DNA from: Gammaproteobacteria bacterium
Lineage (GTDB): Bacteria > Pseudomonadota > Gammaproteobacteria > GCA-002705445 > GCA-002716945
Assembly (NCBI GenBank): GCA_965660795.1
Contig: CBFIBF010000001.1
Coordinates: forward strand, 30,932-94,931
Length of the DNA: 64,000 nucleotides
Direction: 5' to 3'
Shown here: positions 13,810 to 64,000 of the stretch, piece after piece
How positions within the stretch are numbered: position 1 is the stretch's first letter
Layout of the letters: each line of letters begins with the position of its first letter
The notes under the pieces: model-generated
Databases searched by the model: none
Seen by the model: the letters and a program-made list of their open reading frames with translations, nothing else
What the model was told of the DNA's origin: nothing
Position numbers and translations under genes: made by a program

Positions 13810-13811
13810 TT

Positions 13812-13884: not shown

Positions 13885-13892
13885 CGAATATA

Positions 13893-36024: not shown

Positions 36025-36088
36025 AAGATGATTCTACCAAAGTGTTATAATTGTTACAAATATATTAATATTAGACAATAAACAGGAA

Positions 36089-37333: not shown

Positions 37334-37361
37334 GTAACAATATTATATCTCATTTAAGTAA

Positions 37362-38012
37362 TTATTTGATAGCAAAACCATTAGAATATCTCATATCAAT
37401 TGACTTAATTTCTTGCTTAAAAACAAGCTTAAGTTTATCGAATGAAATTATCAATCTGTCTAAGTTTCGATTCAGATTTTCTCTATCTGATATTATAAGT
37501 AATGAATCTGTATAGATTTTTATCAAAGAGTTATGTATTTCAATTTTTGTTAAGCTAAGTTTAATTTTATCTAAATATGATTTACATGAGTCAAAAATAG
37601 CTCTAGATAGATAACTATCGTTAGTGCTGTCTGTGATAATTGGAAGTTCTATATTAGATAAATTATCTTCAATAACAGTCCCATCAAGTGTCAAAATTTT
37701 AGAGTTGTATACTGCCAGAGGTTTATGCTGTGTAATAGTGATTAATAGTTTCGATGGAAATGATTTTTTGATTTCAACATCTTTAATCCAAGCATCAGAT
37801 ATAATGGACTTTCTTAATTCATTAATATCTACAGATAATAAATTTTCACCTTGAAGAGTTGAAATAATAGCATTAATCTTTTCATAATCATAATTCGATT
37901 CTTGCGCTATTACATCGATTTCATCAATTGGATATATGAAATTATTTTTACCATAAAAAAATAAGATAGGTATTGATATTAATATTAATAAAGTAAATAA
38001 AAGCTTAGGCAT
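37362..38012 (-). CDS. ftsQ: Cell division protein FtsQ
   Basis: 216 aa with an N-terminal transmembrane helix and a POTRA-like domain, sitting between ddl and ftsA. Confidence 0.8.
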   Translation of the reverse strand: MPKLLFTLLILISIPILFFYGKNNFIYPIDEIDVIAQESNYDYEKINAIISTLQGENLLSVDINELRKSIISDAWIKDVEIKKSFPSKLLITITQHKPLAVYNSKILTLDGTVIEDNLSNIELPIITDSTNDSYLSRAIFDSCKSYLDKIKLSLTKIEIHNSLIKIYTDSLLIISDRENLNRNLDRLIISFDKLKLVFKQEIKSIDMRYSNGFAIK

Positions 38013-42184: not shown

Positions 42185-42186
42185 TT

Positions 42187-45681: not shown

Positions 45682-45684
45682 TGT

Positions 45685-47019
45685 CTATTTCAAACCTTCA
45701 GCTATTAAATCAAAACTCATAAATCTTGATGCTTTAATCAAAATTACACTATCACTATTAGATAACTGTTTTGCATGATTTATTAAATCACTCATATCAC
45801 TATAAGTATAACAGCGTTTTCCAAATATTGACTTAGCTTCAGATTTATAATTGCCCATGTATAGTAAATATTTTATACCTGAATCCTTTGCAAAACGAAA
45901 AATTTCTATATGATGCTCAAGAGCTGCATCACCTAGTTCTCCCATATCTCCCATAATAAATATTTTATCTTTATTAAAAATCTCAAGTTGCTTAATAGAC
46001 GATTTCATCGACATAGGATTCGCATTATAAGAATCATCAATTACAGTGGATTTATTTTTTGATATAAATTTGTAAAACCTACCTTTTACTCCTTTAAATG
46101 ATTGCAAGCCATTTTGAACATCCTTGATATTTGCTCCAGCTTCCATTGCTAATGAAACGCTAAACAACATATTGATAGGGAGATGGCCAGTAGTATATTT
46201 TTTATCAATACTGAAATCTCCTTTAACTGTAGTGAAATAAAAATCCGTCTCATTATTATATTTGATCATATAGTCCGCATTCTCTTTAGCTGAAATTGTG
46301 GTAATTTTTTTATCATTATTGAGTCTAGCCCACTTAGAATAATATAAGTCATCTTTATTTAAGATTACTTGATTGGTTCTTGGATGAGAAAAAATTTCCT
46401 CTTTTGTAGAAATAAGATTTTCTATATTTCCAAAAGATTGCATATGAGCTTCAGAAACATTTAATAATGTCGTCATATCAGGCTCGCATATATTAACTAG
46501 TTGAGAAATATCATTTTTTTTACTTGCTCCTAACTCATAAACACATTTATCAGTTTCGTTATTAAATGCCTTAAAAATTGATAATGGCAATCCAATATCA
46601 TTATTAAAATTTCCAATGGTAGTGCTAACATTGAATGATTGTTTTAATATTTCGGCAGTAAGCTTTGTTACTGATGTTTTTCCATTTGTGCCAGTAACTC
46701 CAATTGTAAATGGTTGCCCCATAGTTTTTTTTAGGTTGCATGCAATTACACCCAATGCGTCAATAGTATCATCACAAATAATATGAGGTATGTTGCGGCA
46801 CTCTTTTATTGCTGATTTATTGCAAACAATTGCTGATGCGCCATTTTTTATTGATTCATCTATAAAATCATGCCCGTCAAAATTATCTCCCTTAATAGCA
46901 ATGAATAGATCACCTTTTTTAACATCTCTGCTATCAATACTAATGTTATTAATAAAAGCATCTTCTCCATATAAACTTGAAGATAGAAATTTTGATATAT
47001 TTGTCAATTTAACTTCCAT
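45685..47019 (-). CDS. murF: UDP-N-acetylmuramoyl-tripeptide--D-alanyl-D-alanine ligase
   Basis: 444 aa Mur ligase (GVTGTNGKTSVT). Confidence 0.9.
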   Translation of the reverse strand: MEVKLTNISKFLSSSLYGEDAFINNISIDSRDVKKGDLFIAIKGDNFDGHDFIDESIKNGASAIVCNKSAIKECRNIPHIICDDTIDALGVIACNLKKTMGQPFTIGVTGTNGKTSVTKLTAEILKQSFNVSTTIGNFNNDIGLPLSIFKAFNNETDKCVYELGASKKNDISQLVNICEPDMTTLLNVSEAHMQSFGNIENLISTKEEIFSHPRTNQVILNKDDLYYSKWARLNNDKKITTISAKENADYMIKYNNETDFYFTTVKGDFSIDKKYTTGHLPINMLFSVSLAMEAGANIKDVQNGLQSFKGVKGRFYKFISKNKSTVIDDSYNANPMSMKSSIKQLEIFNKDKIFIMGDMGELGDAALEHHIEIFRFAKDSGIKYLLYMGNYKSEAKSIFGKRCYTYSDMSDLINHAKQLSNSDSVILIKASRFMSFDLIAEGLK

Positions 47020-48430
47020 TCTTACTTATTAGACCCTCTAAATAATCAATATCATTATGCTTTATTTTTCTGTTATTTTTTAGAATAAAGTTTTCATTAC
47101 CTTTACCTAGTATGAAATTTAATTCATTTTTGGTTGAGGTTTCAAAAAGATATTTTATTGCTTTTTTCCTGTTTTCAATAACCCTGACTTTATTTTTATG
47201 TACGATGCCAGAAATAATATCTTTTTTGATAACAGAAAATTTTTCGGTTCTAGAGTTATCTTCTGTCATTATTATTTCTGATGAGAATTTATCAACAATC
47301 TTTGCAGTTAACTTTCTTTTAGAAGTATCTCTGTCACCGCCACATCCAAATAAAGTACGAACTTTTTTATTTTTACAAAAATCATAAAATATATTTTTAT
47401 AAGCTTGTTCAGTATGTGCATAATCTATTAAAAATATACCATTATGTTTTGTAGATATAATATGTCTTCTACCTTTTAATGGTTTCAATCTGGATATAGA
47501 TTCTAATATTTCATCAATATTGAATTTCTCTAGCTTCATTAACGCGATTATTAATTTTATCGAATACTTATTGAAAGGATTCATTTTTGTTTTATGAAAT
47601 GATCCTAAGATATCTGTGTCTATAAAATTTTTTTTGTTTATTTTATTTTTTGAGATGTAATACTTTTGTTTACATTTATATTGGGAATTATCAATTTTTT
47701 TTAAATTTATACAATCATGATTCAATACTACTTTTATGCTCTGATTAATTATATTTAACTTTGAATGAATGTAATTCCTAAGAGTTTTATGATAATCAAT
47801 ATGGTCTTTTTCAATATTTGTTATTACTGAATAATCAAAATTTATACCATCTAACCTCCCTTGATGTAATCCTTGTGATGAACACTCAATGATAATGTAA
47901 TCGCATTTCTTCAGTGAAAAATTAATTATATTTTTATAAATTATATCAATTGGTGGTGTTGTATAATTATTTTGTAAAGTATTAGGGTATATGCCGATAC
48001 CCTCACTTGAAATTAATCCTACTTTTTTATTCTGTATTGTTAGTGAATCTGCAAGTAGTAATGACGTAGAAGTCTTTCCATTAGTTCCAGTAACTCCAAT
48101 AAGGCAAGGTAATTGCTTAATCTTCAATAAATCATATTTAAATAACTTACTATATGTACTGAAGATATCTTTTGATACCAAATAAGGAACCGATTTATTA
48201 AGAGTTTTGCGTGAGTAAATAAATGGAGTAATAAATCCGCTTGCGCCTTTTTCTATAGCATCTTTTATATTAGAAAAATTTTTTTTGGTGTTTTTCTCAA
48301 GTGATATAAATACTTGATTCTCTCTTAAATACTTAGAATTAATACAAAATCTATTTGATAAATACTTGTCATACCTTGTATTGCATAAGATAAATTTTTT
48401 ATATTGTTTTAATTTATCTTGAGCCTGCAT
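47009..48430 (-). CDS. murE: UDP-N-acetylmuramoyl-L-alanyl-D-glutamate--2,6-diaminopimelate ligase
   Basis: 473 aa Mur ligase (GVTGTNGKTST, GCGGDRD). Confidence 0.9.
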   Translation of the reverse strand: MQAQDKLKQYKKFILCNTRYDKYLSNRFCINSKYLRENQVFISLEKNTKKNFSNIKDAIEKGASGFITPFIYSRKTLNKSVPYLVSKDIFSTYSKLFKYDLLKIKQLPCLIGVTGTNGKTSTSLLLADSLTIQNKKVGLISSEGIGIYPNTLQNNYTTPPIDIIYKNIINFSLKKCDYIIIECSSQGLHQGRLDGINFDYSVITNIEKDHIDYHKTLRNYIHSKLNIINQSIKVVLNHDCINLKKIDNSQYKCKQKYYISKNKINKKNFIDTDILGSFHKTKMNPFNKYSIKLIIALMKLEKFNIDEILESISRLKPLKGRRHIISTKHNGIFLIDYAHTEQAYKNIFYDFCKNKKVRTLFGCGGDRDTSKRKLTAKIVDKFSSEIIMTEDNSRTEKFSVIKKDIISGIVHKNKVRVIENRKKAIKYLFETSTKNELNFILGKGNENFILKNNRKIKHNDIDYLEGLISKNGS

Positions 48431-50135
48431 ATTCTATATTGCTATCAATTCTCATGATATGTTGCATGAATTCACCAAAAACTGGCGCAGCATGATAACC
48501 GCCTGAGCCTTGTCTATCTTTTGGTTCTCTTATAATTACAGCTGCAACATATTTAGGTATAGGATCTCCGACGATGCCAACAAATAATGCATTGTGATTA
48601 TTGGTATTATATTTTCCATTTTTTAGTAGTCTTACTGTACCTGTTTTACCATATGTCGTATATCCATTAACTTTAGCTTTTTTTCCTGTTCCATCATCTG
48701 AGTGAACTACTTGCTTCATCATATTAAGAACGATTGATGTTTTCTTGCTATCTAACAACTGATGATCCTTCTCAAAGTGTAATTCGTTACTATTGATATA
48801 CTTTAATTGAGTATAATGCCCCTCATTAGCCAATATTGTATACGCGTTCACTAAATGCATTAATGATACAGATATACCATACCCATAACCAATACTGTGA
48901 TGTTCTGATTCGGATATTTCATTAGTTGTTGGTAACTTTCCATTTCTAGATCCTGGAAGGTCTATATATAGTGAATGTCCAAATCCAAATTTCTCAAGAT
49001 TACTGATTAGTTGTTTCTTTGATAGCATTGTTGATACTCTAGCCGCACCAATGTTGCTCGAGTACTTAATGATATCACCTGATGAAACTTTCCCTAAAAA
49101 TTTCCAATCCTTAATTTCTTTATCATCAAGCTTTATGATTCCTGGGGCAGTATCAATGATCGTATCATGATTAATCAGACTATGATGAAGTCCAGCATAA
49201 ATTATAAAGGGTTTTATGGTTGATCCTGGCTCTATCAAATCATGAATAATTCTGTTCTTGATTTTTTCACCTGAATAACTTGTTCTTGTTTCTGGATCAA
49301 AAGAAGGATAATTTGCCATTGACAAAATATTACCAGTAGCTGTCTCAACAAGAACAATAGATGCGCTGTCTGCCTCAAACTTCTTTACATATTTCTTCAA
49401 AACATCATATGCAATAATTTGTATTTGCTTATCAAGCGTAAGTGTTACGTCTAATCCAGCCTTAGATTTCTTTATGATTTCTAGCGTTTCAATTGCTCGA
49501 CCGATATTATCTTTTTTTATTTTTTTAATTCCATCTGAAGGTTTTAAGACTTTGTTTTTGGCAAGCTCAATTCCTTCTTGTCCTACATCATCAACATTAG
49601 TAAATCCTAAAACATTAGAAAATGCTTCACCTCCTAAATAAGACCTTTTACTCTCATTGATGAAATAAATATAAGAATTTTTATATTTTTCAATCTTTGT
49701 AAACTCTAATTTTGAAATATGTCTTTTTAAATAATATTCCTTTTTATCTTTATTTCTATATATTGCTTTGCTGATTTTCTGGTAAGGAATATCAATAATT
49801 TCTGAAATTTTTTTTAAATCATCTTTATATTCTGATGTATAAAGCTTGCTTGGATTAATACATAAAGTTTTTGAGGGCAATGACATTGCTAATATATTTT
49901 TATTTCTATCAAATATAATTCCGCGCTGCTCTTTAGTTATTATATTTTGTATCTGTCTTTTTTTCCCCTCATTGATTATATTTTGCTTGCAGGTACTTTC
50001 ATTGAAATAAAAGCAATCCGTGCCTTTGATTTGGATGAAATATAATCTAATAATAATTATTAGAAGTGTAATGGAGGCTATTATTACGAATAATAATAGT
50101 CTCCATTTTTCATTTTTTACTTTACTATCAATCAG
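48414..50135 (-). CDS. ftsI: Peptidoglycan D,D-transpeptidase FtsI (PBP3). The true start is unresolved: the track ORF starts at the first ATG (49886), but the transmembrane N-terminus lies upstream.
   Basis: The 490-aa track ORF has PBP dimerisation and transpeptidase motifs (STIKP, SSN, KTGT). The same frame stays open upstream to 50144 and encodes ...KWRLLLFVIIASITLLIIIIRLYFIQIKGTD...QRGIIFDRNKNILAMSLP. That is the canonical FtsI cytoplasmic, transmembrane and pre-PBP segment, but it has no in-frame ATG, GTG or TTG. Candidate starts are CTG at 50135 or ATT at 50132. Alternatively ATG at 50113 is one base out of frame at an A-run. Confidence 0.75.
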   Translation of the reverse strand: MIDSKVKNEKWRLLLFVIIASITLLIIIIRLYFIQIKGTDCFYFNESTCKQNIINEGKKRQIQNIITKEQRGIIFDRNKNILAMSLPSKTLCINPSKLYTSEYKDDLKKISEIIDIPYQKISKAIYRNKDKKEYYLKRHISKLEFTKIEKYKNSYIYFINESKRSYLGGEAFSNVLGFTNVDDVGQEGIELAKNKVLKPSDGIKKIKKDNIGRAIETLEIIKKSKAGLDVTLTLDKQIQIIAYDVLKKYVKKFEADSASIVLVETATGNILSMANYPSFDPETRTSYSGEKIKNRIIHDLIEPGSTIKPFIIYAGLHHSLINHDTIIDTAPGIIKLDDKEIKDWKFLGKVSSGDIIKYSSNIGAARVSTMLSKKQLISNLEKFGFGHSLYIDLPGSRNGKLPTTNEISESEHHSIGYGYGISVSLMHLVNAYTILANEGHYTQLKYINSNELHFEKDHQLLDSKKTSIVLNMMKQVVHSDDGTGKKAKVNGYTTYGKTGTVRLLKNGKYNTNNHNALFVGIVGDPIPKYVAAVIIREPKDRQGSGGYHAAPVFGEFMQHIMRIDSNIEYAGSR

Positions 50136-51261
50136 CTTGTTGTCTTAGAAATGCTGGTATGTCTATTGAAGTTTGATCTTCTTGTCCAGATAGATCTACA
50201 TGCTCAATATTATTATTGGAGTTTTGAAAGCTTTTAACACTGTTCATGTTTTCTTTAGGTTGTTCTTCTAAAGAAGGTTCAGTAGTTACAACATCTGCTA
50301 CATTGTTTTGTACAAAACCTGTTGCAATTATAGTAACTCTCAAGTCTCCTATATTATCATCTTCTTTAATACAGCCGGTGATAATCTTTGCGTCTTCATG
50401 TGCAATTTCTCTGATTTTATTTCCAATAACTTCAAATTCATCTGTAGTCAAATCTGAACCAGATGTAATGTTAACAAGAACGCCGCTTGCGCCTTTAAGG
50501 CTTATATTATCAAGTAAAGGGCTGCTAAGTGCTGTAGTAACAGCTTCCTCAGCTCTATTTTCACCAGATGAAACACCAGAGCCCATCATTGCCTTGCCCA
50601 TTCCTGACATTACGGTTTTAACATCTGCAAAATCAACATTCATAAAACCTCTAATAGTTATAATTTCTGTTATCCCTTTGACAGCACCTCTTAGCACGTC
50701 ATTAGCGTTTTCAAATGATGAAAATATGGATTCTCCTCCGCCATATACCTCTTTAAGTTTTGAATTTGGTATTACAATGAGTGAATCCACCCATTGTTCT
50801 AGATTATCTATGCCTTCTTGTGCATTTGCCATTCTCTCTGGACCCTCAAAATCGAATGGTTTTGTCACTACAGCAACTGTCAGTATACCTAAATCCCTAG
50901 CAATCTGGGCAATAACTGGTGCTGCGCCTGTGCCTGTTCCACCACCCATACCAGCGGCTATGAAAAGCATATCTGCTCCTTCAATTGACTCTTTTAGAGT
51001 TTCGCTTGCTTCAAGTGCTGCTTGTCTGCCTTTTTCAGGATCTGCGCCAGCTCCTAATCCTTTAGTTATTTCAGAGCCTATCTGAACCGTGACTGCGCCG
51101 TCTATATCCCTTAGGGCTTGTACATCAGTATTTGCAATTAAAAAATCTGCCCCATGAATTTGAGACTTAAGCATCGACATAATAGCGTTACCACCGCCAC
51201 CGCCTACACCAATAACTTTGATAACCGCATTTTGATTATAATTATTTACTATTTCAAACAT
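50128..51261 (-). CDS. ftsZ: Cell division GTPase FtsZ
   Basis: 377 aa with the GGGTGTG tubulin signature and the conserved C-terminal peptide DIPAFLRQQAD. Confidence 0.97.
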   Translation of the reverse strand: MFEIVNNYNQNAVIKVIGVGGGGGNAIMSMLKSQIHGADFLIANTDVQALRDIDGAVTVQIGSEITKGLGAGADPEKGRQAALEASETLKESIEGADMLFIAAGMGGGTGTGAAPVIAQIARDLGILTVAVVTKPFDFEGPERMANAQEGIDNLEQWVDSLIVIPNSKLKEVYGGGESIFSSFENANDVLRGAVKGITEIITIRGFMNVDFADVKTVMSGMGKAMMGSGVSSGENRAEEAVTTALSSPLLDNISLKGASGVLVNITSGSDLTTDEFEVIGNKIREIAHEDAKIITGCIKEDDNIGDLRVTIIATGFVQNNVADVVTTEPSLEEQPKENMNSVKSFQNSNNNIEHVDLSGQEDQTSIDIPAFLRQQAD

Positions 51262-51270
51262 GGTGTCCTC

Positions 51271-51540
51271 CTATTGATCCATATTCATGATTAAAATTCT
51301 TTCTTTATTTGGCAGCTGCATATTAAGAGCCTTACCTAGACTATTTTTCTGTAAAACTTTATCTGTAATGTCAGCTTTATCTTTTAGCAACTGTCGATAT
51401 GATTCAGATAAATAATAATGTTTCTTTTCGTTTTCAGATATTTCAATGTTCAAGATTCTATTTTGATATTTTATAAAAATCACTCCAAAAGCTGAAATGG
51501 TTATAAGTAAAATTAAAACAAAAGAAGCTGTCAAATTCAT
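51271..51540 (-). CDS. ftsL: Cell division protein FtsL
   Basis: 89 aa with a single transmembrane helix plus coiled coil, sited between rsmH and the downstream division genes. Confidence 0.75.
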   Translation of the reverse strand: MNLTASFVLILLITISAFGVIFIKYQNRILNIEISENEKKHYYLSESYRQLLKDKADITDKVLQKNSLGKALNMQLPNKERILIMNMDQ

Positions 51541-52469
51541 ATTGATTTCTCCAATACATTTATTTTTGCTGATCTTGATCTTATATTTTCTATGACTTCA
51601 CTTTGAGATGGTTTAATTTTTTTTATTAAGTTAAATAACTTTTTAAGAAATTCATTTTTTATAGGTATTTTTCTAGGTGTAGATAAATTATGATCGGTCA
51701 ATATCATAAAATCTTTTATAACTCGTTCTTCTAGTGAATGATAAGTTATAAGAACTAATCTACCTTTAGGAGCTAGTATGCTGTATGATTTTTCTAAGAT
51801 ACTTTTGAGAACATCTAGTTCCTTATTGACAAAGATTCTCAAAGCTTGAAAAGATCTGGTTGCATTATGTTTATTCTTATCATTAACTAAAACAGATTTG
51901 TTGATTATATTCACTAGCTCGAGAGTACTATTAATTGGGCTCAATGCTCTATGTTTGATTATGTTTTTAGCAATTCTTTTTGAGAATTTTTCCTGCCCAT
52001 ATACTCTTAAGATGCTCTCAATATCTTTTTCTGGTAACTCATTTATATATTCTGAGGCTTTTTTGCCATAATTTTGATTGAATCTCATATCTAAAGGCGC
52101 ATCTTTATTGAAACTAAACCCTCTGTCTGCATCATCTAAGTGGACAGAAGAAACACCAAGATCGAACAAAATACCGTTAACTGATCCATATACATTCCAT
52201 GTCCTAGCATATTCATCAAGAGAAGAGAAACATCCATGTTTTAGGGTAAACCTATTCTCTTGCGCAAATTGTTTTTTATTATAATCAATAGCATCCTTGT
52301 CTTTATCAACCGCAAAAATCTTTGCGTCCTGATTAGTATTCTCTAATATTGAAATTGAGTGGCCGCCATATCCAAGAGTAGCATCTATATATACTCCACT
52401 CTTATCGGTTATCAGATGCTTAATTGCTTCATTCTTCATTACTGGTATATGGAACTGAGTATTATTCAT
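51537..52469 (-). CDS. rsmH: 16S rRNA (cytosine1402-N4)-methyltransferase RsmH (MraW)
   Basis: 310 aa with a SAM motif (YIDATLGYGGHS) and conserved RsmH regions. Confidence 0.93.
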   Translation of the reverse strand: MNNTQFHIPVMKNEAIKHLITDKSGVYIDATLGYGGHSISILENTNQDAKIFAVDKDKDAIDYNKKQFAQENRFTLKHGCFSSLDEYARTWNVYGSVNGILFDLGVSSVHLDDADRGFSFNKDAPLDMRFNQNYGKKASEYINELPEKDIESILRVYGQEKFSKRIAKNIIKHRALSPINSTLELVNIINKSVLVNDKNKHNATRSFQALRIFVNKELDVLKSILEKSYSILAPKGRLVLITYHSLEERVIKDFMILTDHNLSTPRKIPIKNEFLKKLFNLIKKIKPSQSEVIENIRSRSAKINVLEKSI

Positions 52470-52656
52470 TTTCTTTAAAGCTTCTTATATGTTCATATGC
52501 AGATTTGATTCTTATAAATATTTTGATAGATTGGGAATCGTTCTTATTTTTGTCTGGATGATATTTTGACGCTAGTCTTCTGTAAGCTGCTTTTATTACA
52601 GACATGTCATCACTAGCATTTACTCCCAATATTCTATAGTCGTTATTAGTTATCAT
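52462..52656 (-). CDS. Stand-alone J-domain protein (DnaJ-like, 64 aa)
   Basis: DYRILGVNASDDMSVIKAAYRRLASKYHPDKNKND...IKSAYEHI is a complete J domain with the HPD motif. Its start overlaps the mraZ stop (ATGA) and its stop overlaps the rsmH start by 8 nt. Confidence 0.65.
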   Translation of the reverse strand: MITNNDYRILGVNASDDMSVIKAAYRRLASKYHPDKNKNDSQSIKIFIRIKSAYEHIRSFKENE

Positions 52657-53144
52657 ATACTTATGTCATTTAAAGCTTCTACATCATCCGTAGAGGTTGC
52701 CTCTTCACGCCATTTCTCAACATTGCGATCCCAAGAATTCTGATCCCAAATTTCAAATTTTTCACCTTGACCAATCAATATGACTTTTTTTGATAATGAT
52801 GCGTATTGTCTTAGTGGTTTTGAGATTAGAATTCTACCACTTGAATCAACATCAACGTCTTCTGCATGGCCAATTAAGAGTCTTTGAATTCTTCTAGCAT
52901 TTCTATTAAAGCTCGGTAAGTTACTGATTTTATCCTGAATCTTAGACCAAATTGTTGTTGGATATAAAAGTAGACATTTATCCTCAGTATCAATAGTTAT
53001 CACCATTGAGCCTTTTAAAAGGTTTGTAATATGTTCTCGATAGGAAATAGGAATACCTAGCCTGCCTTTTGAATCAAGGCTAAGATTGTGAATACCTTTG
53101 AATAGATTCTCCATTTTTCTCCACAAAATAACAAATAATGCCAT
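52653..53144 (-). CDS. mraZ: Transcriptional regulator MraZ
   Basis: 163 aa with duplicated MraZ/SpoVT-AbrB-like halves (GIHNLSLDSKGRLGIP / HAEDVDVDSSGRILI). First gene of the dcw cluster. Confidence 0.93.
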   Translation of the reverse strand: MALFVILWRKMENLFKGIHNLSLDSKGRLGIPISYREHITNLLKGSMVITIDTEDKCLLLYPTTIWSKIQDKISNLPSFNRNARRIQRLLIGHAEDVDVDSSGRILISKPLRQYASLSKKVILIGQGEKFEIWDQNSWDRNVEKWREEATSTDDVEALNDISI

Positions 53145-53649: not shown

Positions 53650-54456
53650 CTATTTTCTAGCAACCAAGTATGCTATCCATGCAGGGTCAGCATCACATTT
53701 TTTCATCTTATAGAATTTCTCAGTTTCCTCATCTTTTTCCTCATCCCAGCCTTGCATATATATATCTACAGACTTAAACCCCGCCTCTTTCAGGCATTCC
53801 TGAATTTCAGGTAATGTCCATAATCTCCAATCGTAAGTAAATGCTCTTTTTTTCTTTGTTTTATCAGGGAATTCAAAATGTATATAACATTTTATTTCAT
53901 GAGTAATTGGATTGAATGATGATTGATCCCATACATAAGTGAAATTTTTATGTTTTGTTCTTTCCTCTAAAAGCTGATGAGCCTCATATCCACCAAAAGC
54001 ATCCAACAAAAAAAGACCATTTCTTTTTAGTTGAGAACGTGCGTTTTGGAAATATTTAATTAATTTAACCCTATCTTTAAAAACAAAATAACTAAAATTA
54101 GCAGCTAGTACACAGTCGACTTTATCATCTTTGTATTTAGAGGAATCTCCATAACATATTTTTATTCTAGACTGTTGATTTTGATCAAGTCTTCTCAAAG
54201 CAGTTTTTTTCGCTTGGTTTATCATTTGTTTATCATAATCCACAGCTATAGATGTATGTTTATTATTATCCATAACCCACTCAGTAGATATTAAAGCTGA
54301 AGCAGAAAAATCTTCTCGTAAGCTTACACATTTAGATTTATTATATTTTTTATATAACTTTTTAATAAAACCCACCTCAAATTCTGGACATTGAACTGAT
54401 TCTTCATAAAGTTGATTGATGTCAGCTGTGCGAGCAGTTAATTTTTTTTTCACCAT
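53650..54456 (-). CDS. Putative SAM-dependent methyltransferase-like protein
   Basis: 268 aa with a degenerate motif I-like LREDFSASALISTE and an NFSY (NPPY-like) segment, followed by an acidic/basic C-terminal tail. Weak family assignment. Overlaps the dusA 3' end by 35 nt. Confidence 0.4.
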   Translation of the reverse strand: MVKKKLTARTADINQLYEESVQCPEFEVGFIKKLYKKYNKSKCVSLREDFSASALISTEWVMDNNKHTSIAVDYDKQMINQAKKTALRRLDQNQQSRIKICYGDSSKYKDDKVDCVLAANFSYFVFKDRVKLIKYFQNARSQLKRNGLFLLDAFGGYEAHQLLEERTKHKNFTYVWDQSSFNPITHEIKCYIHFEFPDKTKKKRAFTYDWRLWTLPEIQECLKEAGFKSVDIYMQGWDEEKDEETEKFYKMKKCDADPAWIAYLVARK

Positions 54457-55443: not shown

Positions 55444-56052
55444 ATGTCGACTAAATTACAAAAAGATGATATTTCTATTGCCATTTTAGCTGGCGGAAAA
55501 TCATCAAGAATGGGTGGTAATAATAAAGGTCTCATGAAGCTAAATAATAAGCTTGTTTTGTCAAGGCTAATATCTATTGCATGTAATTACTCATCTGATG
55601 TTTTTGTTATTGCAAATGATCTACTAGATGAATATAGAAAAATTCATCAAAACGTTTATTCAGATATTCTTGAAGATTATCAAGGGCCATTATCTGGTAT
55701 ATACTCTGCGCTTTCGTATTGTAAAAATCAATATTTAATCACCTTGCCATGTGATGGACCATTCCTCTCTAAAGAATATTTTGAAACTTTGACTGAATTT
55801 AATAATGAAAAAAAGATCTTTGTAACAAAGACAGGTGATAGGCTTCAGCCTGTGCATGCAAGAATTGATACATCGCTAAAAAATAATTTAAAACTCTTCT
55901 TACAATCTGGAGAGAGAAAAATAGATAAGTGGTATACTTCATGCGGATATGAAGTGGTTTTATTTGATGAAAGTGATGAAATGTTTATAAATCTAAATAC
56001 AAAAATAGATATTGAAGAAAATATTGAATTAATTAAAAAACTATATGGATAA
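55444..56052 (+). CDS. MobA-like nucleotidyltransferase (molybdenum cofactor guanylyltransferase family)
   Basis: 202 aa with AILAGGKSSRMGGNNKGL and PCDGPFL, matching MobA motifs. First gene of the C1-cofactor cluster. Confidence 0.7.
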   Translation: MSTKLQKDDISIAILAGGKSSRMGGNNKGLMKLNNKLVLSRLISIACNYSSDVFVIANDLLDEYRKIHQNVYSDILEDYQGPLSGIYSALSYCKNQYLITLPCDGPFLSKEYFETLTEFNNEKKIFVTKTGDRLQPVHARIDTSLKNNLKLFLQSGERKIDKWYTSCGYEVVLFDESDEMFINLNTKIDIEENIELIKKLYG

Positions 56053-56575
56053 ACATAGAATAGCATGGTGTATTACTGGTTCGGGTCATTACCTAAAAGA
56101 ATCAATTGATCTTATGCTTACATTAAATCATGTAGATTTATATTTGAGTAAAGCAGGTGAAGAGGTACTCAAATGGTATGACTATGATCTTGATATTTTC
56201 AAGAAAAAGAAGATTAAAATATTCAAAGATATAACTGCCAGCTCGGCACCAGTTAGTTTATTATATGAGTCTGTTTATAAACTAGTTGTTATCTCGCCTG
56301 CTACCTCAAATACAATAGCTTTCATGGCACAGGGTATGTCTAATAACCTTGTGACAAATATGTTTGCACAAGCTGGTAAATGTGGAATTAAAACACTAGT
56401 TTTTGCATGCGATACTGAACCAGTTGTAATTACACAGGCACCTAAAAAATTAGTTACTTTATACCCAAGAGAAATAGATTTAAAAAATTTTAGAGCTTTG
56501 AAAAAATTTAAAAATGTATCCGTTGTTGATAACGTAGCATCTTTGAAAAAAGCTTTAAGTAAATTAATTAAATGA
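56045..56575 (+). CDS. Flavoprotein-family protein (CoaC/EpiD/AfpA fold); candidate dihydromethanopterin reductase (DmrX/AfpA-like)
   Basis: 176 aa with AWCITGSG and ISPATSNTIA, the two signature motifs of the FMN-binding flavoprotein family. Overlaps its neighbours (8-nt and 4-nt overlaps). Confidence 0.55.
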   Translation: MDKHRIAWCITGSGHYLKESIDLMLTLNHVDLYLSKAGEEVLKWYDYDLDIFKKKKIKIFKDITASSAPVSLLYESVYKLVVISPATSNTIAFMAQGMSNNLVTNMFAQAGKCGIKTLVFACDTEPVVITQAPKKLVTLYPREIDLKNFRALKKFKNVSVVDNVASLKKALSKLIK

Positions 56576-57954
56576 AAAATATTTTATTCATTACAGGTAA
56601 GTTGGCTGAAAAAGGCCTTAAGACAGTCCTTGATGGTATTGAAGAAAAAAAATTTAATTACAAAATAAAAAATCTTAATGTGAATGTAGCGGCTCTTTTA
56701 ACAACAGACATGATTGAGAGACGTATTGGTGATGTTAGTCAGTTTGATGAGATTATAATTCCTGGAAGAGTGCGTGGGGATATAGAACGTCTTGAAAAGA
56801 TTGTTAAAAAGAAGGTAACCAGAGGTCCTGATGAATTAAAAGACTTACCAATAATGTTCGGAGCAAAAGCTGTCAAATATGATCTTTCAAAATTTGAAAC
56901 AGCAATATTTGGGGAAATTACAGATGCATTAAATATGACTATTGAAGCTGTAATAGAAAGAGCAGAATATTTTAGATCAGAAGGAGCTGACGTAATAGAC
57001 ATTGGTTGTTTGCCAAATAAAGAATTCCCTCATCTTGAAGAATTAGTCCAGGAACTGAAAAATAGAAATTTCTATGTCAGTATTGATTCTCATAATACAG
57101 ATGAATTGATTCGTGGTTCTAAAGCTGGTGCAGATTATCTCTTAAGTATTAAAAGTGAGACATATCACATACTTGAAAACCTTGACTCATATCCTGTTCT
57201 TATCCCATCAGATAATAATTTACCTGAATTTTATAACCTAATTGATAGAGCTATAAAGGATAATTTAACTTTTATAGCGGATCCAATTCTGGACCCTGTT
57301 TCATATGGGTTTACTAAAAGTTTAATGAGGTATGTAAATTTGAGAGAAAAATATCCTGACATTCACATAATGATTGGTATAGGAAATATCACTGAACTTA
57401 CTCATGCTGATACTACGGGAATAAATATGATAATGCTAGGTATCGTAGAAGAACTCAAATTAAACCACATATTAACAACCCAGGTCAGTAGACATTGTTC
57501 GACGGTCATAAGAGAAACTGACCTTGCAAGGAGAATAATTCATGCGGCTTCTGAAAATAATATTACACCAAAGCATATAAATGATGGATTAATGGCAAAT
57601 CATGATCATAAAGATTATCCTTTATGCTCAGATGAACTAAGTGAAATGCAAACAAAAATCAAAGACAAGAACTATCGTATTTATGTCAATGATGATGGGA
57701 TACATTTATTTAATAAAAATATATACAAAGTTTTTAGTGACCCTTTTAAGTTTTATGAGTATCTTGATTTGAATGATGATACAGGGCATGCATTTTATCT
57801 TGGTGTTGAATTAGCAAGGGCACAAATCGCATTTCAATTAAAGAAGAATTATCATCAAGATGAGGAACTTACTTGGGGGTGTTTAGTTGATAAAGAAATT
57901 GATGATATGATAAGTGAAAAGAAATTAGGTCCGACATTCAAAAAAATAAAATGA
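56572..57954 (+). CDS. Dihydropteroate-synthase-like pterin-binding protein (H4MPT-pathway type) with a C-terminal extension
   Basis: 460 aa carrying Pterin_bind-like motifs (GADVIDIGCLPN, SIDSHNTDELIRGSKAGADYL, MIGIGNITELTHADTTGIN), followed by about 170 residues of unassigned sequence. Confidence 0.6.
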   Translation: MKNILFITGKLAEKGLKTVLDGIEEKKFNYKIKNLNVNVAALLTTDMIERRIGDVSQFDEIIIPGRVRGDIERLEKIVKKKVTRGPDELKDLPIMFGAKAVKYDLSKFETAIFGEITDALNMTIEAVIERAEYFRSEGADVIDIGCLPNKEFPHLEELVQELKNRNFYVSIDSHNTDELIRGSKAGADYLLSIKSETYHILENLDSYPVLIPSDNNLPEFYNLIDRAIKDNLTFIADPILDPVSYGFTKSLMRYVNLREKYPDIHIMIGIGNITELTHADTTGINMIMLGIVEELKLNHILTTQVSRHCSTVIRETDLARRIIHAASENNITPKHINDGLMANHDHKDYPLCSDELSEMQTKIKDKNYRIYVNDDGIHLFNKNIYKVFSDPFKFYEYLDLNDDTGHAFYLGVELARAQIAFQLKKNYHQDEELTWGCLVDKEIDDMISEKKLGPTFKKIK

Positions 57955-58523
57955 TTCATGAAGTAATTGTAACTACCTTTAATAAAAAGAAAGAGGTTCA
58001 CATAGCGCCAATGGGTGTAAAGTTTGTTGATTTTGATAACAAGCAATGTGTTCAAATTTCTCCATTCAAACCGTCTCATACATTAAATAATCTTATTGAT
58101 ACAAAAGTGGCTACAATTAATTATGTTGATAACGTGAAAGTGTTTGCTGGCATTGTCACAGAGGAAAAAAAGTCATGGGATTTAGATCAGGTTTCAGATA
58201 GTTGTGTGCCGCATTTGGATATTACAAATACATATATGAACGTTAGTGTTTGTCAGGAAAATGATGATGATGTAAGGCCAAATATTATATGTAATATAGA
58301 AAATACTAAAATACTAAGGCCTTTTATGGGCTTTAATAGAGCTCAGTTTTCTGTGATTGAACTAGCAGTGCTTTCTACACGATTAGGAAGAATAGAGGAT
58401 GATAAAGTAAAAAGAGAGTATGAGTATCTAAAAATAGGGATAGATAAGACTGCAGGTGAAGACGAAAGAGCAGCATGGAAATGGATAGAAAACAAAATTA
58501 TGAAATATTTTAATAATGATTAA
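57951..58523 (+). CDS. DUF447-like (flavin-reductase-like split-barrel) H4MPT-pathway-associated protein
   Basis: 190 aa with N-terminal EVIVTT...HIAPMGV, typical of the FMN-binding split-barrel / DUF447 family found in H4MPT gene clusters. Confidence 0.45.
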   Translation: MIHEVIVTTFNKKKEVHIAPMGVKFVDFDNKQCVQISPFKPSHTLNNLIDTKVATINYVDNVKVFAGIVTEEKKSWDLDQVSDSCVPHLDITNTYMNVSVCQENDDDVRPNIICNIENTKILRPFMGFNRAQFSVIELAVLSTRLGRIEDDKVKREYEYLKIGIDKTAGEDERAAWKWIENKIMKYFNND

Positions 58524-59220
58524 GATTCTTGGTAGTATCAAAGATGTTAGCGAGGCGAAGGTTATCTCGAAATACGATTTTGATATTATTGATATAAAAA
58601 ATGTCATGGATGGTGCACTTGGATATGTGGGAGATGACGTTGTAAGCAACATCTCTAAAATGTTTAAAAATAAAACTTTAAGTGTTACTGCAGGAAATGA
58701 TTTACATCCAAACTCACAAAAGCAGATATCCAGATTGATGTTGATGAATAAGCTTGGGGTTAAATATATTAAAATAGGAGTTTATGGTGTGGATAACATC
58801 AATGAACATAAAGAATTTTTAAAATCAGTTTCAGGATTATCAATCAAAGTTGTGGGTGTTATGTTTGCGGAGTATATTACAAATGAAAGTCAGATAGATT
58901 CATTTTGTGAATTAAATTATCACGGACTGATGATTGATACTGAGAACAAAAATGCTGGGTCTTCCATAGATATTCTTCCAGATCATCTTATTGAGTATTT
59001 CACTGAAAAATGTAGGCAACATAATAAGCTGTGTGGAATTTCAGGTTCCTTGTCATCAAAAAATTTAGAAAAGGTTTTTTCTTTTAGTCCTAATTTTATT
59101 GGATTAAGAGGTGCTATTTGTTCTCAATCTAAAAGAGAAACAATAGATTCTCTAAACTGTGAGAAAGTTTTAGAATATATTAAGAGAGTTAATCAGAAAA
59201 TGCATCTAAAAGTGGTTTAA
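58516..59220 (+). CDS. MfnB-like (5-formylfuran-3-yl)methyl phosphate synthase (DUF556 family)
   Basis: 234 aa with N-terminus MIKILGSIKDVSEAKVISKYDFDIIDIKNVMDGALGYV, similar to MfnB (MxLLVSP..EA..A...GADIIDVKNP.EGSLGA). Confidence 0.55.
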   Translation: MIKILGSIKDVSEAKVISKYDFDIIDIKNVMDGALGYVGDDVVSNISKMFKNKTLSVTAGNDLHPNSQKQISRLMLMNKLGVKYIKIGVYGVDNINEHKEFLKSVSGLSIKVVGVMFAEYITNESQIDSFCELNYHGLMIDTENKNAGSSIDILPDHLIEYFTEKCRQHNKLCGISGSLSSKNLEKVFSFSPNFIGLRGAICSQSKRETIDSLNCEKVLEYIKRVNQKMHLKVV

Positions 59221-60547
59221 CTTTAGAAATTGTCTCATTATACTCACTGCGAATGTCAGAATCATAGACAATTCCTCCTCCGCCCCAGAAATATAAATTA
59301 TTATCAATAGATAACATAGATCTGATTGATATATTTAAATCAGTTTTTTCATCAAAACTAATATAACCTATAGATCCACAGTATATCGATCTTTCATCAG
59401 GCTCAAGTTCCTCAATAATTTCCATCGCACGAAGTTTCGGAGCACCTGTAATTGAACCTCCTGGGAAAGCATCTCTTATCAGATTATAAATATTTGAACT
59501 TTCATCAATTTCTCCACTTATTGTACTCACAAGATGATGGACGTTAGCAAATGTTTCAATTTCAAATAATTTATCAACTTTTACACTACCCTTTTTACAG
59601 TTAATGCTCAAATCATTCCTAAGTAAATCCACAATCATCAAGTTTTCAGCCATATCTTTTTCAGATGATTTAAGATCATCGATGTTATTTTTGTTAATGA
59701 TTGGATTATCAGATATTGGTCTTGTTCCTTTAATGGGTTTAGTCTCAATGATATTATTTTTTATTGATAAAAATCTCTCTGGAGAGAATGATAAAATTTT
59801 CCCGTTATGCGAGTTAAAATAAACTGAATAGGGGGATGAAAAGGTTTTATTAAGCTGTTGATAAAGATTATATTCATCTCCCTCATATGCGAGTGAAAAT
59901 CTTTGAGCTAAATTAACCTGATAACAATCCCCTGCTTTAATATATTCTAGTATTTTCATGAGCTTCATCTCATATAAAGCATAATTCATATTTGATTCAC
60001 AGCTTGAAGTTATTTTAAAGGAATCTTTACTGTTTAATTTTTTATTTTCTGGAGAGTAATTGCTTATGCTTTTAATTAATGTATTAATTTCATAATAAAC
60101 GATAAAAGCTTTTTTTTTATGATAATCATAAATTACTGCCCAATCATAAATCCCGAAAGCAAAAGTAGGAAAGTTCAAGCTTTTATGTAAGCTTTTAATT
60201 TGATGTAGTTTTTTTCCATAATCATATGCAATATGTCCAATAGCACCTCCACAAAATGGAATATCATCAGCAGACTCACATTTATAATTACTCATTATCT
60301 CTCTAAGTAAATCAAATGGACATGTATCAATCTCCTTTGTAAAATTTTCATCCTCTATTAATAAAACAGAATCGTCTTTGAAAATAATTTTTTTTATGGG
60401 ATTCGATGTAATTATATCAAATCTTTGATCAGGATATTTTTCATAATTACTGTTCAAGAAAACAGCCCAGTCATTCTCTTTTATAAACTCAAAAATTTTA
60501 TGAGATGGTATATTAAAATCAAGTTCAATAAATTTATAATTCATCAC
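59189..60547 (-). CDS. Chorismate-utilising enzyme, aminodeoxychorismate synthase component I-like (PabB-like)
   Basis: 452 aa with C-terminal chorismate-binding motifs (FPGGSITGAPKLRAMEIIEELE, RSIYCGSIGY, GGGGIVYDSDIRSEYNET). Confidence 0.7.
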   Translation of the reverse strand: MMNYKFIELDFNIPSHKIFEFIKENDWAVFLNSNYEKYPDQRFDIITSNPIKKIIFKDDSVLLIEDENFTKEIDTCPFDLLREIMSNYKCESADDIPFCGGAIGHIAYDYGKKLHQIKSLHKSLNFPTFAFGIYDWAVIYDYHKKKAFIVYYEINTLIKSISNYSPENKKLNSKDSFKITSSCESNMNYALYEMKLMKILEYIKAGDCYQVNLAQRFSLAYEGDEYNLYQQLNKTFSSPYSVYFNSHNGKILSFSPERFLSIKNNIIETKPIKGTRPISDNPIINKNNIDDLKSSEKDMAENLMIVDLLRNDLSINCKKGSVKVDKLFEIETFANVHHLVSTISGEIDESSNIYNLIRDAFPGGSITGAPKLRAMEIIEELEPDERSIYCGSIGYISFDEKTDLNISIRSMLSIDNNLYFWGGGGIVYDSDIRSEYNETISKVKPLLDAFSD

Positions 60548-61583
60548 TTATCCTATTCAAAACAAAAGCAGGAAAAAGGTGTGACAGTGATTCTCCGCCA
60601 TTAATAGAAGTCTTTAGAATATGGTTAATATTCTTAAATTTATATCCGTTAGCAGTGCAGATATCTGAAATAATATTTACTCCTAATCCCAAACCAATTA
60701 CCTTAAAACTAGAATCTAAAAAATATTTATCAACTAAATATGATAAGTTTTTATTAATATTCTGCATTTGTCTGTAATGTAATTTATTGCACAAATAGTT
60801 CAAAAGTTTCTTTTTACTTTTATCATAGTCAAAACCAAATGATCTTGATACTCTTTTATATGAATTTATTACAGAATAATTTAAGCCATCTGCAGATTTA
60901 GAATAAATATCCTTATGGCATAATTTTTTTAATATAATATTTACGTCCGCCATTGTTGAAAAATTTTCTGGAATTATACTATACTCTCTATTTTTATAAT
61001 TAATATTATTCATGAGAGAGAATAATGGAGTCCTTGAACATCCAGTATATAAGAGTTCTCTATTTTGAATGCCACTGAGATCAGATGATCTTTGATTTAA
61101 AATCTTTCCATCCTTCAATAGGATAAAGTCACATGTAGTAGACCCTAAATCTATAGCAATTGCATTATCATAATAGTTAGATAAATAAAGGGCCGATGCA
61201 AACCAGTTATAAGATCCTATATAATCAGTATTAAATAGATTAGATTTTTTAATATCTATGAATCCATCTTTTGTGAACACGCTAGAGGTAATTTTTGTTT
61301 TTTTGATTTTATCTATTATATATTTAACACCCTTTTTTCTACTTTCAAAACAATCGCACATCTCAGCAGACATAGTAAAATAATTTTTGATTTGAGAATT
61401 TTTATTACTAAATTGATTTGTAACTCTGGTTATGATTTCATCTAGAGCATCATGTTCGCTCCAAAAGTCAAAATCAATAATGTCATACCAAATAATATTA
61501 TTTGATTCTGGTTCAGCACAGTATTTAATATGTGCGCCGCCAATATCCCATCCTATTTTTGTTATATAAGGTTTAATTGACAT
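60534..61583 (-). CDS. Hydantoinase/oxoprolinase-like H4MPT-linked C1-pathway protein (MfnF-type)
   Basis: 349 aa with an N-terminal GWDIGGAHIK actin-like-fold ATPase motif (the hydantoinase_A N-terminus) and a second ASKHG-like motif (AIDLGSTTCD). Confidence 0.5.
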   Translation of the reverse strand: MSIKPYITKIGWDIGGAHIKYCAEPESNNIIWYDIIDFDFWSEHDALDEIITRVTNQFSNKNSQIKNYFTMSAEMCDCFESRKKGVKYIIDKIKKTKITSSVFTKDGFIDIKKSNLFNTDYIGSYNWFASALYLSNYYDNAIAIDLGSTTCDFILLKDGKILNQRSSDLSGIQNRELLYTGCSRTPLFSLMNNINYKNREYSIIPENFSTMADVNIILKKLCHKDIYSKSADGLNYSVINSYKRVSRSFGFDYDKSKKKLLNYLCNKLHYRQMQNINKNLSYLVDKYFLDSSFKVIGLGLGVNIISDICTANGYKFKNINHILKTSINGGESLSHLFPAFVLNRISDEL

Positions 61584-62476
61584 GTTCTACCTGCTATATC
61601 ACATATGGTATCTTCAATATAATCAAGACAACTAGTATTCTTACACTTCTGTAACATTGACATGGATGTTGTATATCTTGGATTTACTTCGATAAGAAAA
61701 AACTCTCCCTTGTATTCAATAAAGTCTATACCCACAAAACCTCTAAGATTAGGAAGGATTGATATGACGTCATCAATAAATTTAAATATTAAATTTTTAT
61801 CAGTTGGATATAAATTGACTAGTATGGATTTAACTTGAATTCTATCCTTAGACACAGTCATATTATGTTTATTAATTGATAAAACTCTATAATTATTCTC
61901 AGATACATGAAGATTTACACTATGTGAATTTCCTGGAATATACTTTTCAGTAATTTTATTTAAATCTTCATATTTACCTTTTTTTACAAAATAAGTATCA
62001 GAACAACCACATCCGAATCTATCTTTTGTAATTAATAAAGTATTCTTTACATCTGAGTCATAAGTATCAGGATTAAGTATATTATTTTCAGTACAAATTT
62101 TCTTTAGCCTGATCTTATCAGTAGCAATTAATATCGTTCTTAAATCTGATAAATACAAGTTTTCTATATTGGGCGATAGCTTTTTTATATAATTATATGA
62201 TATGAAATCATTCTCAGGACATATGGGTATAAAATAATCATATTGGTTTATGAATTCTGCGTCATATATGAGTTGCAAATTATTTTGATTAACAATAATA
62301 GCTTCTTTTCTGTTGGCATATTTATGTCGGTAATCACAAAAGAAGCTTATTTGATATTTAGTTGTGTCAATAAGAGACCTTAGAATTATATTTGCTTCTG
62401 TGAGAAGATGATGGTCAAGTTTATTTTCAATCAACCCGCCGCCTGTAATATACTCAAATATAAGAATTCTTTTCAT
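61562..62476 (-). CDS. ATP-grasp ligase (MptN/MfnD-type)
   Basis: 304 aa with an ATP-grasp C-terminal motif (FFLIEVNPRYTTSM) and the small size typical of RimK-like cofactor ligases. Confidence 0.55.
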   Translation of the reverse strand: MKRILIFEYITGGGLIENKLDHHLLTEANIILRSLIDTTKYQISFFCDYRHKYANRKEAIIVNQNNLQLIYDAEFINQYDYFIPICPENDFISYNYIKKLSPNIENLYLSDLRTILIATDKIRLKKICTENNILNPDTYDSDVKNTLLITKDRFGCGCSDTYFVKKGKYEDLNKITEKYIPGNSHSVNLHVSENNYRVLSINKHNMTVSKDRIQVKSILVNLYPTDKNLIFKFIDDVISILPNLRGFVGIDFIEYKGEFFLIEVNPRYTTSMSMLQKCKNTSCLDYIEDTICDIAGRTCQLNLI

Positions 62477-62477
62477 T

Positions 62478-63155
62478 ATGAATATTATACCTGCAATTGA
62501 TATAAAAGGCGGAATGGTTGTAAGAGCTATGGGAGGGAATCGAAAATATTATCAACCGGTTCACATCAGCTTAAATCAATCATCAGACCCTATTGTTTTT
62601 ACAAGAAAGATTATTCAATTGTATCATCCGTCAGTAATATATCTTGCTGATCTAGATTCGCTAAATAATGATGGAGATAATACAAATATCATTATTGAAC
62701 TATGTAATTTATTCAAAAATATAATATTTTGGGTAGATGTAGGAAACAGGAAAATAAGTTCATTAGAAAAAAATAATATAATTCATATAATGTGCAGCGA
62801 ATGCTTAAAAAAAATAAAAAATTTTAATTATATTTATAAAAATCATATTTACTCATATGACTATAAGGACGGTATAATTGGCTTTAAATATTTTCAAAAG
62901 CTTGATTCTAAATATAAAAATAAAATTATATTAATGAATATGTCAGATATAGGTACCAGCAAAGGTCCAGATTACAAGCACATAAAAAGAACCCGTAGAA
63001 GCTCAAAAAAAGAATATTATGTTGCTGGAGGAATTAGCTCGGTTTTTGATATTATCAGGCTGCGCAATATGAAAGTTAATGGAGTGATTGTTTCATCTAT
63101 TCTATTTAATACAAAAACCAATAAATACTTAATAAAGAAAAGAGCCAGTAGTTAA
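62478..63155 (+). CDS. HisA/HisF-family (beta/alpha)8 barrel protein (HisA-like, H4MPT-cluster type)
   Basis: 225 aa with N-terminus MNIIPAIDIKGGMVVR (HisA-like phosphate-binding start) and a C-terminal AGGISS glycine-rich phosphate-binding motif. Confidence 0.55.
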   Translation: MNIIPAIDIKGGMVVRAMGGNRKYYQPVHISLNQSSDPIVFTRKIIQLYHPSVIYLADLDSLNNDGDNTNIIIELCNLFKNIIFWVDVGNRKISSLEKNNIIHIMCSECLKKIKNFNYIYKNHIYSYDYKDGIIGFKYFQKLDSKYKNKIILMNMSDIGTSKGPDYKHIKRTRRSSKKEYYVAGGISSVFDIIRLRNMKVNGVIVSSILFNTKTNKYLIKKRASS

Positions 63156-63185
63156 CTGGCTCTAATATCATCATATCAAAAATGA

Positions 63186-63698
63186 TTATTTTTCGAACGG
63201 ATGCTCTGTAGCTTTCTTAGCAACTACGTCTTGAGCTTTTGGCTCACCGCTAACAGCATTTTTAATAGCCATTTTTGTTGCTTCAAAATTATAATCATAG
63301 ATACGTTTGTTATCATCAGCGTCCCAATGAATAAACACACCTACACAGATGAAAATATCATCAGCCTCATCAGCTGGAATTGTTCCATCTTCTACACATT
63401 CAGTAACAGCTCTTGCAACTGCTGCTTGCGCTGGACCAAACATTTGAACTGCTTGCTTAGCGCCTTTGATTGTAACTTTGTTGAACATAGCTGTGCTAGG
63501 TTTACATGGTAAGTTAGGTGAAACTACAGCTAATAAAGATGTAAAACCATCTTTGTTATTACATAATGTGTTACAAAATGCATCTTCAACTGCAGAACCA
63601 CGTGGTCCCATTAATAAGTCGATATGTGAAATTTCGTTATCCCCACCTTCGGTTACAACAAGTGCTTCACCAACTAATACTTTGTCGACTACTGCCAT
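63186..63698 (-). CDS. fae: Formaldehyde-activating enzyme (5,6,7,8-tetrahydromethanopterin hydro-lyase)
   Basis: 170 aa that aligns along its whole length with methylotroph Fae from memory: VGEALV...[11 protein letters not shown]...AFCN...[23 protein letters not shown]....[14 protein letters not shown]...[10 protein letters not shown]....VGVFIHW.A.D...I..YN.EATK..I..AV.GEPKA. Confidence 0.88.
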
Positions 63699-63723
63699 TT
63701 TTATCTCCTATTTTTTTTGTTTA

Positions 63724-64000
63724 TTAATAAACGGACACTTCACTACTGGACTCTATACCAATGAAATAATCATATATCATCATCGATACAACCAATAGAT
63801 CAGCTGTTGTCCCTGGATTCACCCGAGCCATTTTAAAATGTTTATCAAGAGATATTAGATTTTTACCCCATGACTCATATCGAGTATCCCCGTCTAGTAT
63901 TTTTATCAAATCAGACGCCTCATTACTAGTCTTTTTTGCTATTTTATTGCCATATTTTCGTCTTAAATGAGAATCTGTGTACTTTTCTAGAGTTTTAAGG
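63724..64000 (-). CDS. CitG/MdcB-like triphosphoribosyl-dephospho-CoA synthase family protein, C-terminal part only. The gene starts beyond the window end; the TTG at 63909 used by the track is probably internal.
   Basis: The frame is open from the window edge: ...DTRYESWGKNLISLDKHFKMARVNPGTTADLLVVSMMI, matching the CitG C-terminal NLSPGGSADLLA region. Confidence 0.5.
   Translation of the reverse strand, partial: LKTLEKYTDSHLRRKYGNKIAKKTSNEASDLIKILDGDTRYESWGKNLISLDKHFKMARVNPGTTADLLVVSMMIYDYFIGIESSSEVSVY

Follow-up and report, generated by a model that had tools for sequence, protein, structure and literature searches.

The right-hand end of the 64-kb stretch of DNA analysed here (the window; GC ~31%) carries genes of tetrahydromethanopterin (H4MPT) and methylofuran metabolism, ending with fae and the truncated 3' end of a CitG-family gene (Table 1).

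Table 1. Island features in the window and, past position 64000, in the same-species contig L003
Feature	Position	Strand	Evidence and remarks
mobA, molybdenum cofactor guanylyltransferase	55444..56052	+	TIGR02665 155.9 bits, cutoff 151.85
AfpA/DmrX-like flavoprotein, candidate dihydromethanopterin reductase	56045..56575	+	TIGR02699 91.7 and TIGR02700 90.3 bits, both below cutoff; PF02441 70.3 bits
Dihydropteroate-synthase (DHPS)-like protein, DUF6513 + pterin-binding domain	56572..57954	+	TIGR00284 167.7 bits, below cutoff; PF20123 88 bits
DUF447 protein, conserved island member	57951..58523	+	PF04289 64.8 bits; PF20766 48.4 bits
4-HFC-P synthase, MfnB-like, orf22-type	58516..59220	+	PF04476 137 bits; NF002576 135 bits
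pabB, aminodeoxychorismate synthase component I	59189..60547	-	TIGR00553 344.8 bits, cutoff 328.4
MfnF-like 'H4MPT-linked C1 transfer pathway protein', orf9-type	60534..61583	-	TIGR03123 204.9 bits, cutoff 244; NF040623 (MfnF) 153.8 bits
ATP-grasp ligase, MfnD-like (tyramine-glutamate-ligase-like)	61562..62476	-	NF040722 68 bits, below cutoff; PF02655 85.4 bits
HisA/HisF-related barrel protein, H4MPT/methylofuran gene set	62478..63155	+	TIGR00734 (hisAF_rel) 100.4 bits, below cutoff; PF00977 76.3 bits
Terminator-like hairpin	63141..63163	-	9-bp stem, T-rich tail; 23 nt past fae stop codon
fae, formaldehyde-activating enzyme (5,6,7,8-tetrahydromethanopterin hydro-lyase)	63186..63698	-	170 aa
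CitG-like/fae spacer	63699..63723	-	25 nt; Shine-Dalgarno AGGAGA 5 nt before ATG (direct reading)
CitG-family gene, 3' end	63724..>64000	-	Last 91 codons, open frame, truncated at window edge
L003 CitG-like	beyond 64000	fae strand	Full protein, 296 aa
L003 RimK/MptN-like glutamate ligase	beyond 64000	fae strand	182.5 bits
L003 Mch	beyond 64000	fae strand	TIGR03120 408.3 bits, cutoff 228.8
L003 ATP-grasp protein	beyond 64000	fae strand	Between mch and dehydrogenase gene
L003 MtdA/B-family dehydrogenase	beyond 64000	fae strand	Mpt_N PF09176 122 bits
L003 MptG, beta-RFAP synthase	beyond 64000	fae strand	Below NCBIfam trusted cutoff
L003 FhcB	beyond 64000	divergent	160.8 bits, below NCBIfam trusted cutoff
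L003 FhcA	beyond 64000	divergent	706 bits, cutoff 392.75
L003 FhcD	beyond 64000	divergent	431.5 bits, cutoff 292.6
L003 FhcC	beyond 64000	divergent	FhcC fragment in same-species contigs, 89 bits

The fae locus and its neighbours

The fae product matches the formaldehyde-activating enzyme model TIGR03126 at 235.6 bits (cutoff 118.05; profile positions 2-160 of 160) and PF08714 at 217.7 bits (cutoff 27; positions 1-158 of 159). Against Fae of Methylorubrum (Methylobacterium) extorquens AM1, known from a crystal structure (PDB 1Y5Y chain A), it scores 227 bits with 106 of 162 residues identical (65%), query residues 4-168 aligning with chain residues 3-165. A preliminary description of this DNA had reported that the 170-aa product aligns with Fae end to end, and all three comparisons agree. 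At the level of sequence, the similarity to known family members is far above chance. The archaeal Fae-Hps fusion model NF009833 aligns only through its N-terminal 155 positions (of 392), and below its cutoff; the protein has the sequence of the stand-alone, ~170-aa form rather than that of the archaeal fusion. The window gene is by these scores a canonical Fae, predicted to condense formaldehyde with H4MPT. In the public assembly collection, 1932 indexed blocks contain the identical protein.

A terminator-like hairpin shortly past the fae stop codon, one of two terminator-like sites found in a consensus scan where 0.4 were expected, suggests that fae closes its transcription unit. The convergent HisA/F-like gene ends within the hairpin. 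A promoter scan of the minus strand detected no sigma-70 consensus ahead of fae. In M. trichosporium, fae1 reads ~24,000 against ~70 for orf7, an excess of the kind that an internal promoter would produce.

The truncated gene next to fae matches PF01874 at 54.7 bits over profile positions 210-284 of 284, the C-terminal quarter, and is 95.6% identical to residues 206-296 of the full-length CitG-like protein in L003. The preliminary description had named it as a CitG-like gene following fae; the family assignment stands, whereas the coding strand places the gene upstream of fae. Against the CitG/MdcB equivalog models TIGR03125 and TIGR03132, the full-length L003 protein reaches only 31.3 and 28.7 bits (cutoffs 272 and 282), and the window fragment, at 19.2 bits, is likewise well under the cutoffs of 272-282. 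On these scores the gene belongs to the broad Pfam family only and does not qualify as a true CitG/MdcB equivalog. It resembles the CitG/MdcB triphosphoribosyl-dephospho-CoA synthases through the PF01874 match over its C-terminal part but, unlike them, does not adjoin citrate lyase or malonate decarboxylase genes.

In a set of 90 fae loci spanning Alpha-, Beta- and Gammaproteobacteria, 87 have a CitG-like gene as the immediate upstream neighbour of fae and 78 have mch ~3 kb upstream of it. On synteny and the AM1 annotation, orf7 is presumably the CitG-like gene of the AM1 cluster. With the published methylotroph island order mch-orf5-orf7-fae, these counts support the earlier proposal that the gene belongs to H4MPT clusters, and its position between a RimK-type ligase (orf5/myfB) and fae suggests that it is the orf7-type CitG paralogue of C1 islands. 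An alternative assignment to orf21, the MfnE homologue according to PMC8141765, was rejected, as synteny with mch-orf5-orf7-fae puts the gene at orf7. No link between MfnE and CitG was found in the literature searched, and no relative of the CitG-like protein was found by sequence in the PDB.

On the other side of fae, positions 55444-63155 hold a series of cofactor-biosynthesis genes. The 4-HFC-P synthase makes the furan moiety of methylofuran, and PabB provides the p-aminobenzoate from which the H4MPT arylamine is made; the DHPS-like protein is presumed to act in coupling the pterin to the arylamine. Together with genes beyond the edge, the H4MPT/methylofuran biosynthesis set comprises MptG, PabB and DHPS-, AfpA-, MfnB-, MfnF-, MfnD- and RimK/MptN-like proteins, of which MptG and the RimK-like protein are encoded outside the window. 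Several of these proteins, and likewise FhcB and MptG, fall short of the trusted cutoffs of NCBIfam and were assigned by family resemblance and synteny. Of the corresponding products in methylotrophs, Orf22, Orf9, Orf5 and OrfY have been assigned as homologues of MfnB, MfnF, MyfB and MyfA, respectively (PMC8141765). The gene for mobA opens the plus-strand run 55444-59220 and overlaps the flavoprotein gene by 8 nt, a linkage kept in two further contigs, L013 and L014; it may serve a molybdenum-dependent formate dehydrogenase encoded elsewhere in the genome.

Partner genes in same-species contigs

Fae is accompanied in the window by none of the enzymes that would act after it. Pfam scans of all open reading frames of at least 110 aa detected no Mch, MtdB or Fhc in the 64 kb, and conspecific Mch, MtdB, FhcA-D, MptG and RimK-like proteins used as tblastn queries found no match there. 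The preliminary description had noted the absence of mtdB, mch and fhcABCD from the 8.5 kb then in view, an observation that thus extends to the whole window, and it had offered two explanations: either the genes lie just past the edge, or this organism uses Fae and H4MPT differently, for instance for formaldehyde trapping only.

Ten long contigs carrying the identical Fae were fetched for comparison. Four contigs (L002, L003, L006 and L009) show 96.5-96.9% nucleotide identity to window positions 53.2-64.0 kb over 10.8 kb, and on this identity they belong to the same species as the window. L003 is contig JAYQMH010000001.1 (1.2 Mb) of GCA_038143675.1. In all four, window position 64000 maps to locus position 9701, and the 9.7 kb beyond carry the partner genes (Table 1). 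On the fae strand these form the same-strand run mptG-mtdA/B-ATPgrasp-mch-rimK-like-citG-like-fae, of which fae is the final gene; on the divergent strand of L003 follow, moving away from fae, fhcB-A-D-C. The Mpt_N dehydrogenase of L003 aligns end to end with the MtdA structure 1LU9 at 154 bits, the references compared being MtdA only. The first of the two explanations thus holds in four same-species contigs of ~97% identity, and the second does not: mch, the MtdA/B-family gene and the fhc set stand next door. A downstream set of mtdB-type, mch and fhc genes amounting to an ordinary complete pathway, the outcome that the preliminary description had itself set against its proposal, is what the conspecific contigs contain.

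The layout is identical in eight more distant contigs of ~72% nucleotide identity (L001, L004, L005, L007, L008 and L010-L012), and the island gene order is likewise the same in L013 and L014. The contigs nearest to the window measure 0.2-1.2 Mb and derive for the most part from assemblies of Great Barrier Reef seawater. In L001, L002 and L004-L010 several island genes, such as those for the MfnF-like protein, PabB, the DHPS-like protein, FhcD and the RimK-like protein, are called in two or three pieces. L003 and the window have these genes uninterrupted, and the splits, in Great Barrier Reef hybrid assemblies, look like residual Nanopore frameshift errors rather than pseudogenes.

A probable formaldehyde-oxidation island and its alternatives

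We consider it highly probable that window positions 55444-64000 are the right-hand half of a complete ~18-kb island for H4MPT/methylofuran-linked formaldehyde oxidation, cut by the window edge. The apparent lack of partners is an artefact, as the window ends inside the gene immediately upstream of fae. Completeness was read on four same-species contigs of ~97% nucleotide identity rather than on the window's own continuation, and we infer from this similarity that the window's own genome continues in the same way. In the intact genome the coding order would be fhcC-D-A-B and, divergently, mptG, the mtdA/B-type gene, the ATP-grasp gene, mch, the RimK-type ligase gene, the orf7-type CitG-like gene and fae, after which would come the terminator and then the cofactor-biosynthesis genes of the window.

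Fae joins formaldehyde to H4MPT to give methylene-H4MPT, MtdB oxidises this to methenyl-H4MPT, Mch converts the latter to formyl-H4MPT, and the Fhc complex passes the formyl unit on to methylofuran, from which formate is then released by hydrolysis. Acting in succession, Fae, the MtdA/B-type dehydrogenase, Mch and Fhc would oxidise the host's formaldehyde to formate. We infer that the pathway runs in this dissimilatory direction, in a sulfur-oxidising marine gammaproteobacterium with a very small genome. The formaldehyde probably derives from methanethiol or other C1 compounds, by analogy with what the literature proposes for order GCA-002705445.

A genuine loss of mtdB, mch and fhc in this strain, unlike its relatives, would leave Fae either with the sole role of trapping or sensing formaldehyde, or as a remnant. 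The one point in favour of such a loss is that none of these genes lies inside the window, and we regard it as very improbable. The full set stands directly upstream of the CitG-like gene in all four same-species contigs and in all eight contigs of related lineages, while the window itself breaks off within an intact, in-frame CitG-like gene 95.6% identical to that of its conspecifics. A full set of intact cofactor-biosynthesis genes has moreover been maintained in a genome of ~1.2 Mb, and extreme purifying selection (dN ~0) acts on Fae, all of which argues against a trap or a remnant.

The island could instead be complete but serve assimilation or a facultatively methylotrophic lifestyle, supplying a serine or RuMP-type cycle with formate or methylene units, and not dissimilation and detoxification only. 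There is precedent for this in alphaproteobacterial methylotrophs, in which H4MPT-derived formate enters the serine cycle. We judge it unlikely here, given that Pfam scans found no hps/phi or serine-cycle gene within the 64 kb and that the genome is very small. Against it also stands the example of two North Sea species of order GCA-002705445, which combine 1.1-Mb genomes and complete tetrahydromethanopterin-pathway sets with no clear serine or RuMP assimilation pathway (PMC8371827 supplement).

The complete, dissimilatory island agrees with what has been described for the order. Methanethiol oxidase was detected in metaproteomes of its North Sea members, and genus GCA-2705445 from the Fram Strait combines methanethiol oxidase, a complete H4MPT pathway and sulfur oxidation. 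The order, defined in GTDB, is a low-GC group recovered abundantly from the Great Barrier Reef. In metagenomes from the North Sea, the Fram Strait and the Great Barrier Reef, its free-living marine genomes are very small (~1.1 Mb) and low in GC. On GC content, genome size, habitat and the reef origin of related contigs, the host of the window probably belongs to this order. One difference lies in the sulfur genes seen: the Fram Strait population is reported with dsrAB and soeABC, whereas the window shows soxXYZA. The pathway is complete, of an ordinary kind and already described. If the host does belong to order GCA-002705445, its biology has been published; if not, this is a standard island in another marine gammaproteobacterium. 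The apparent "Fae without partners" was a false lead, now removed, and carries little weight as a discovery. Of some descriptive value is that a compact single island of ~20 genes in ~18 kb has been kept in a ~1.2-Mb genome, which points to the importance of formaldehyde oxidation for an abundant uncultured marine group.

The closest known system is the 'archaeal-like' H4MPT/methylofuran cluster of M. extorquens AM1 and other proteobacterial methylotrophs, which comprises fae, mtdB, mch, fhcABCD, mptG, orf5/myfB, orf7, orf9, orf17, orf19-22, orfY/myfA, afpA and pabB. The catalytic enzymes are the same, with Fae 65% identical to that of AM1. Also shared are the local order of mch, a RimK-type ligase at the orf5/MyfB position, a CitG-like gene at the orf7 position and fae, and the same kinds of cofactor genes (MfnB-, MfnF- and MfnD-like ATP-grasp, HisA/F-, DHPS- and AfpA-like, PabB and MptG). 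Unlike the AM1-type cluster, the island here has a true mobA translationally coupled to the flavoprotein gene, and many of its biosynthesis proteins are too diverged for NCBIfam cutoffs. Another difference is that an MfnE-type kinase (orf21) did not turn up in the island; nor did an MfnC-type transaminase. In M. trichosporium the genes are spread over five separate islands, whereas here they form one ~18-kb island in a ~1.2-Mb genome with 31% GC.

A high-identity block over fae and the rest of the window

A 60-nt sliding comparison with the ~72%-identical sister lineage revealed a sharply bounded block of ~840 nt (window ~63171-64000; L003 9690-10530) that starts within the CitG-like gene, ~290 nt short of its end, and closes just beyond the fae stop codon, so that it covers the last part of the CitG-like gene and all of fae. 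Identity within the block is 82-100%, against 45-75% in the flanks. The Fae proteins of the two lineages are 100% identical, whereas neighbouring proteins are 50-89% identical. Synonymous divergence (dS) is 0.44-0.54 for fae and 0.52-0.65 for the CitG 3' segment, compared with 1.4-2.3 for the CitG 5' part and mostly saturated values for other genes. The CitG C-terminus shows no special conservation when set against a third lineage (49% amino acid identity).

Codon bias of a very highly expressed gene probably contributes to the low divergence of fae. Purifying selection and codon bias alone were rejected as the explanation of the identical Fae, since they leave unexplained the equally low dS of the adjoining, less constrained CitG 3' segment, and a recombination tract fits the block better than constraint alone. 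From these divergence patterns we tentatively suggest, with a little less than even confidence, that homologous recombination has swapped the ~840-nt block between two deeply diverged, streamlined marine gammaproteobacterial lineages. If so, the pattern would point to one allele of a highly expressed C1 enzyme having spread by a selective sweep across an abundant clade of the ocean.

The remaining ~55 kb of the window hold housekeeping genes (ilv/leu, a dcw cluster, secA, an acrB-type pump, tRNA synthetases and the RNase P RNA) together with sox genes; no rRNA genes were found in the 64 kb. The sox genes (10457-12401, plus strand) encode the thiosulfate-oxidation carriers and cytochromes soxX (92.8 bits), soxY, soxZ (133.4 bits) and soxA, and a TsuA/YeeE-like sulfur transporter is encoded nearby (13893-15092, minus strand). 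Taken together, soxXYZA and the TsuA-like transporter suggest that the host oxidises sulfur in addition to formaldehyde; a soxB gene did not turn up in the 64-kb window. For two open reading frames beside the sox genes, 12427-12927 (plus strand) and 12932-13906 (minus strand), neither Pfam nor NCBIfam gave a match. As annotated, the second runs into tRNA-Lys (13813-13885), so that its real start should lie further downstream. A 268-aa methyltransferase-domain protein without an NCBIfam match (53650-54456, minus strand) adjoins dusA.

The dcw cluster (35116-53144, minus strand) has an unusual gene order. Rather than following ftsA, ftsZ (50128-51261) lies between an ftsL-like gene (51271-51540) and ftsI (48414-49886), and lpxC comes immediately after ftsA (36089-37333). 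At 490 aa, the ftsI reading frame is N-terminally short, with a gap of 242 nt to ftsZ.
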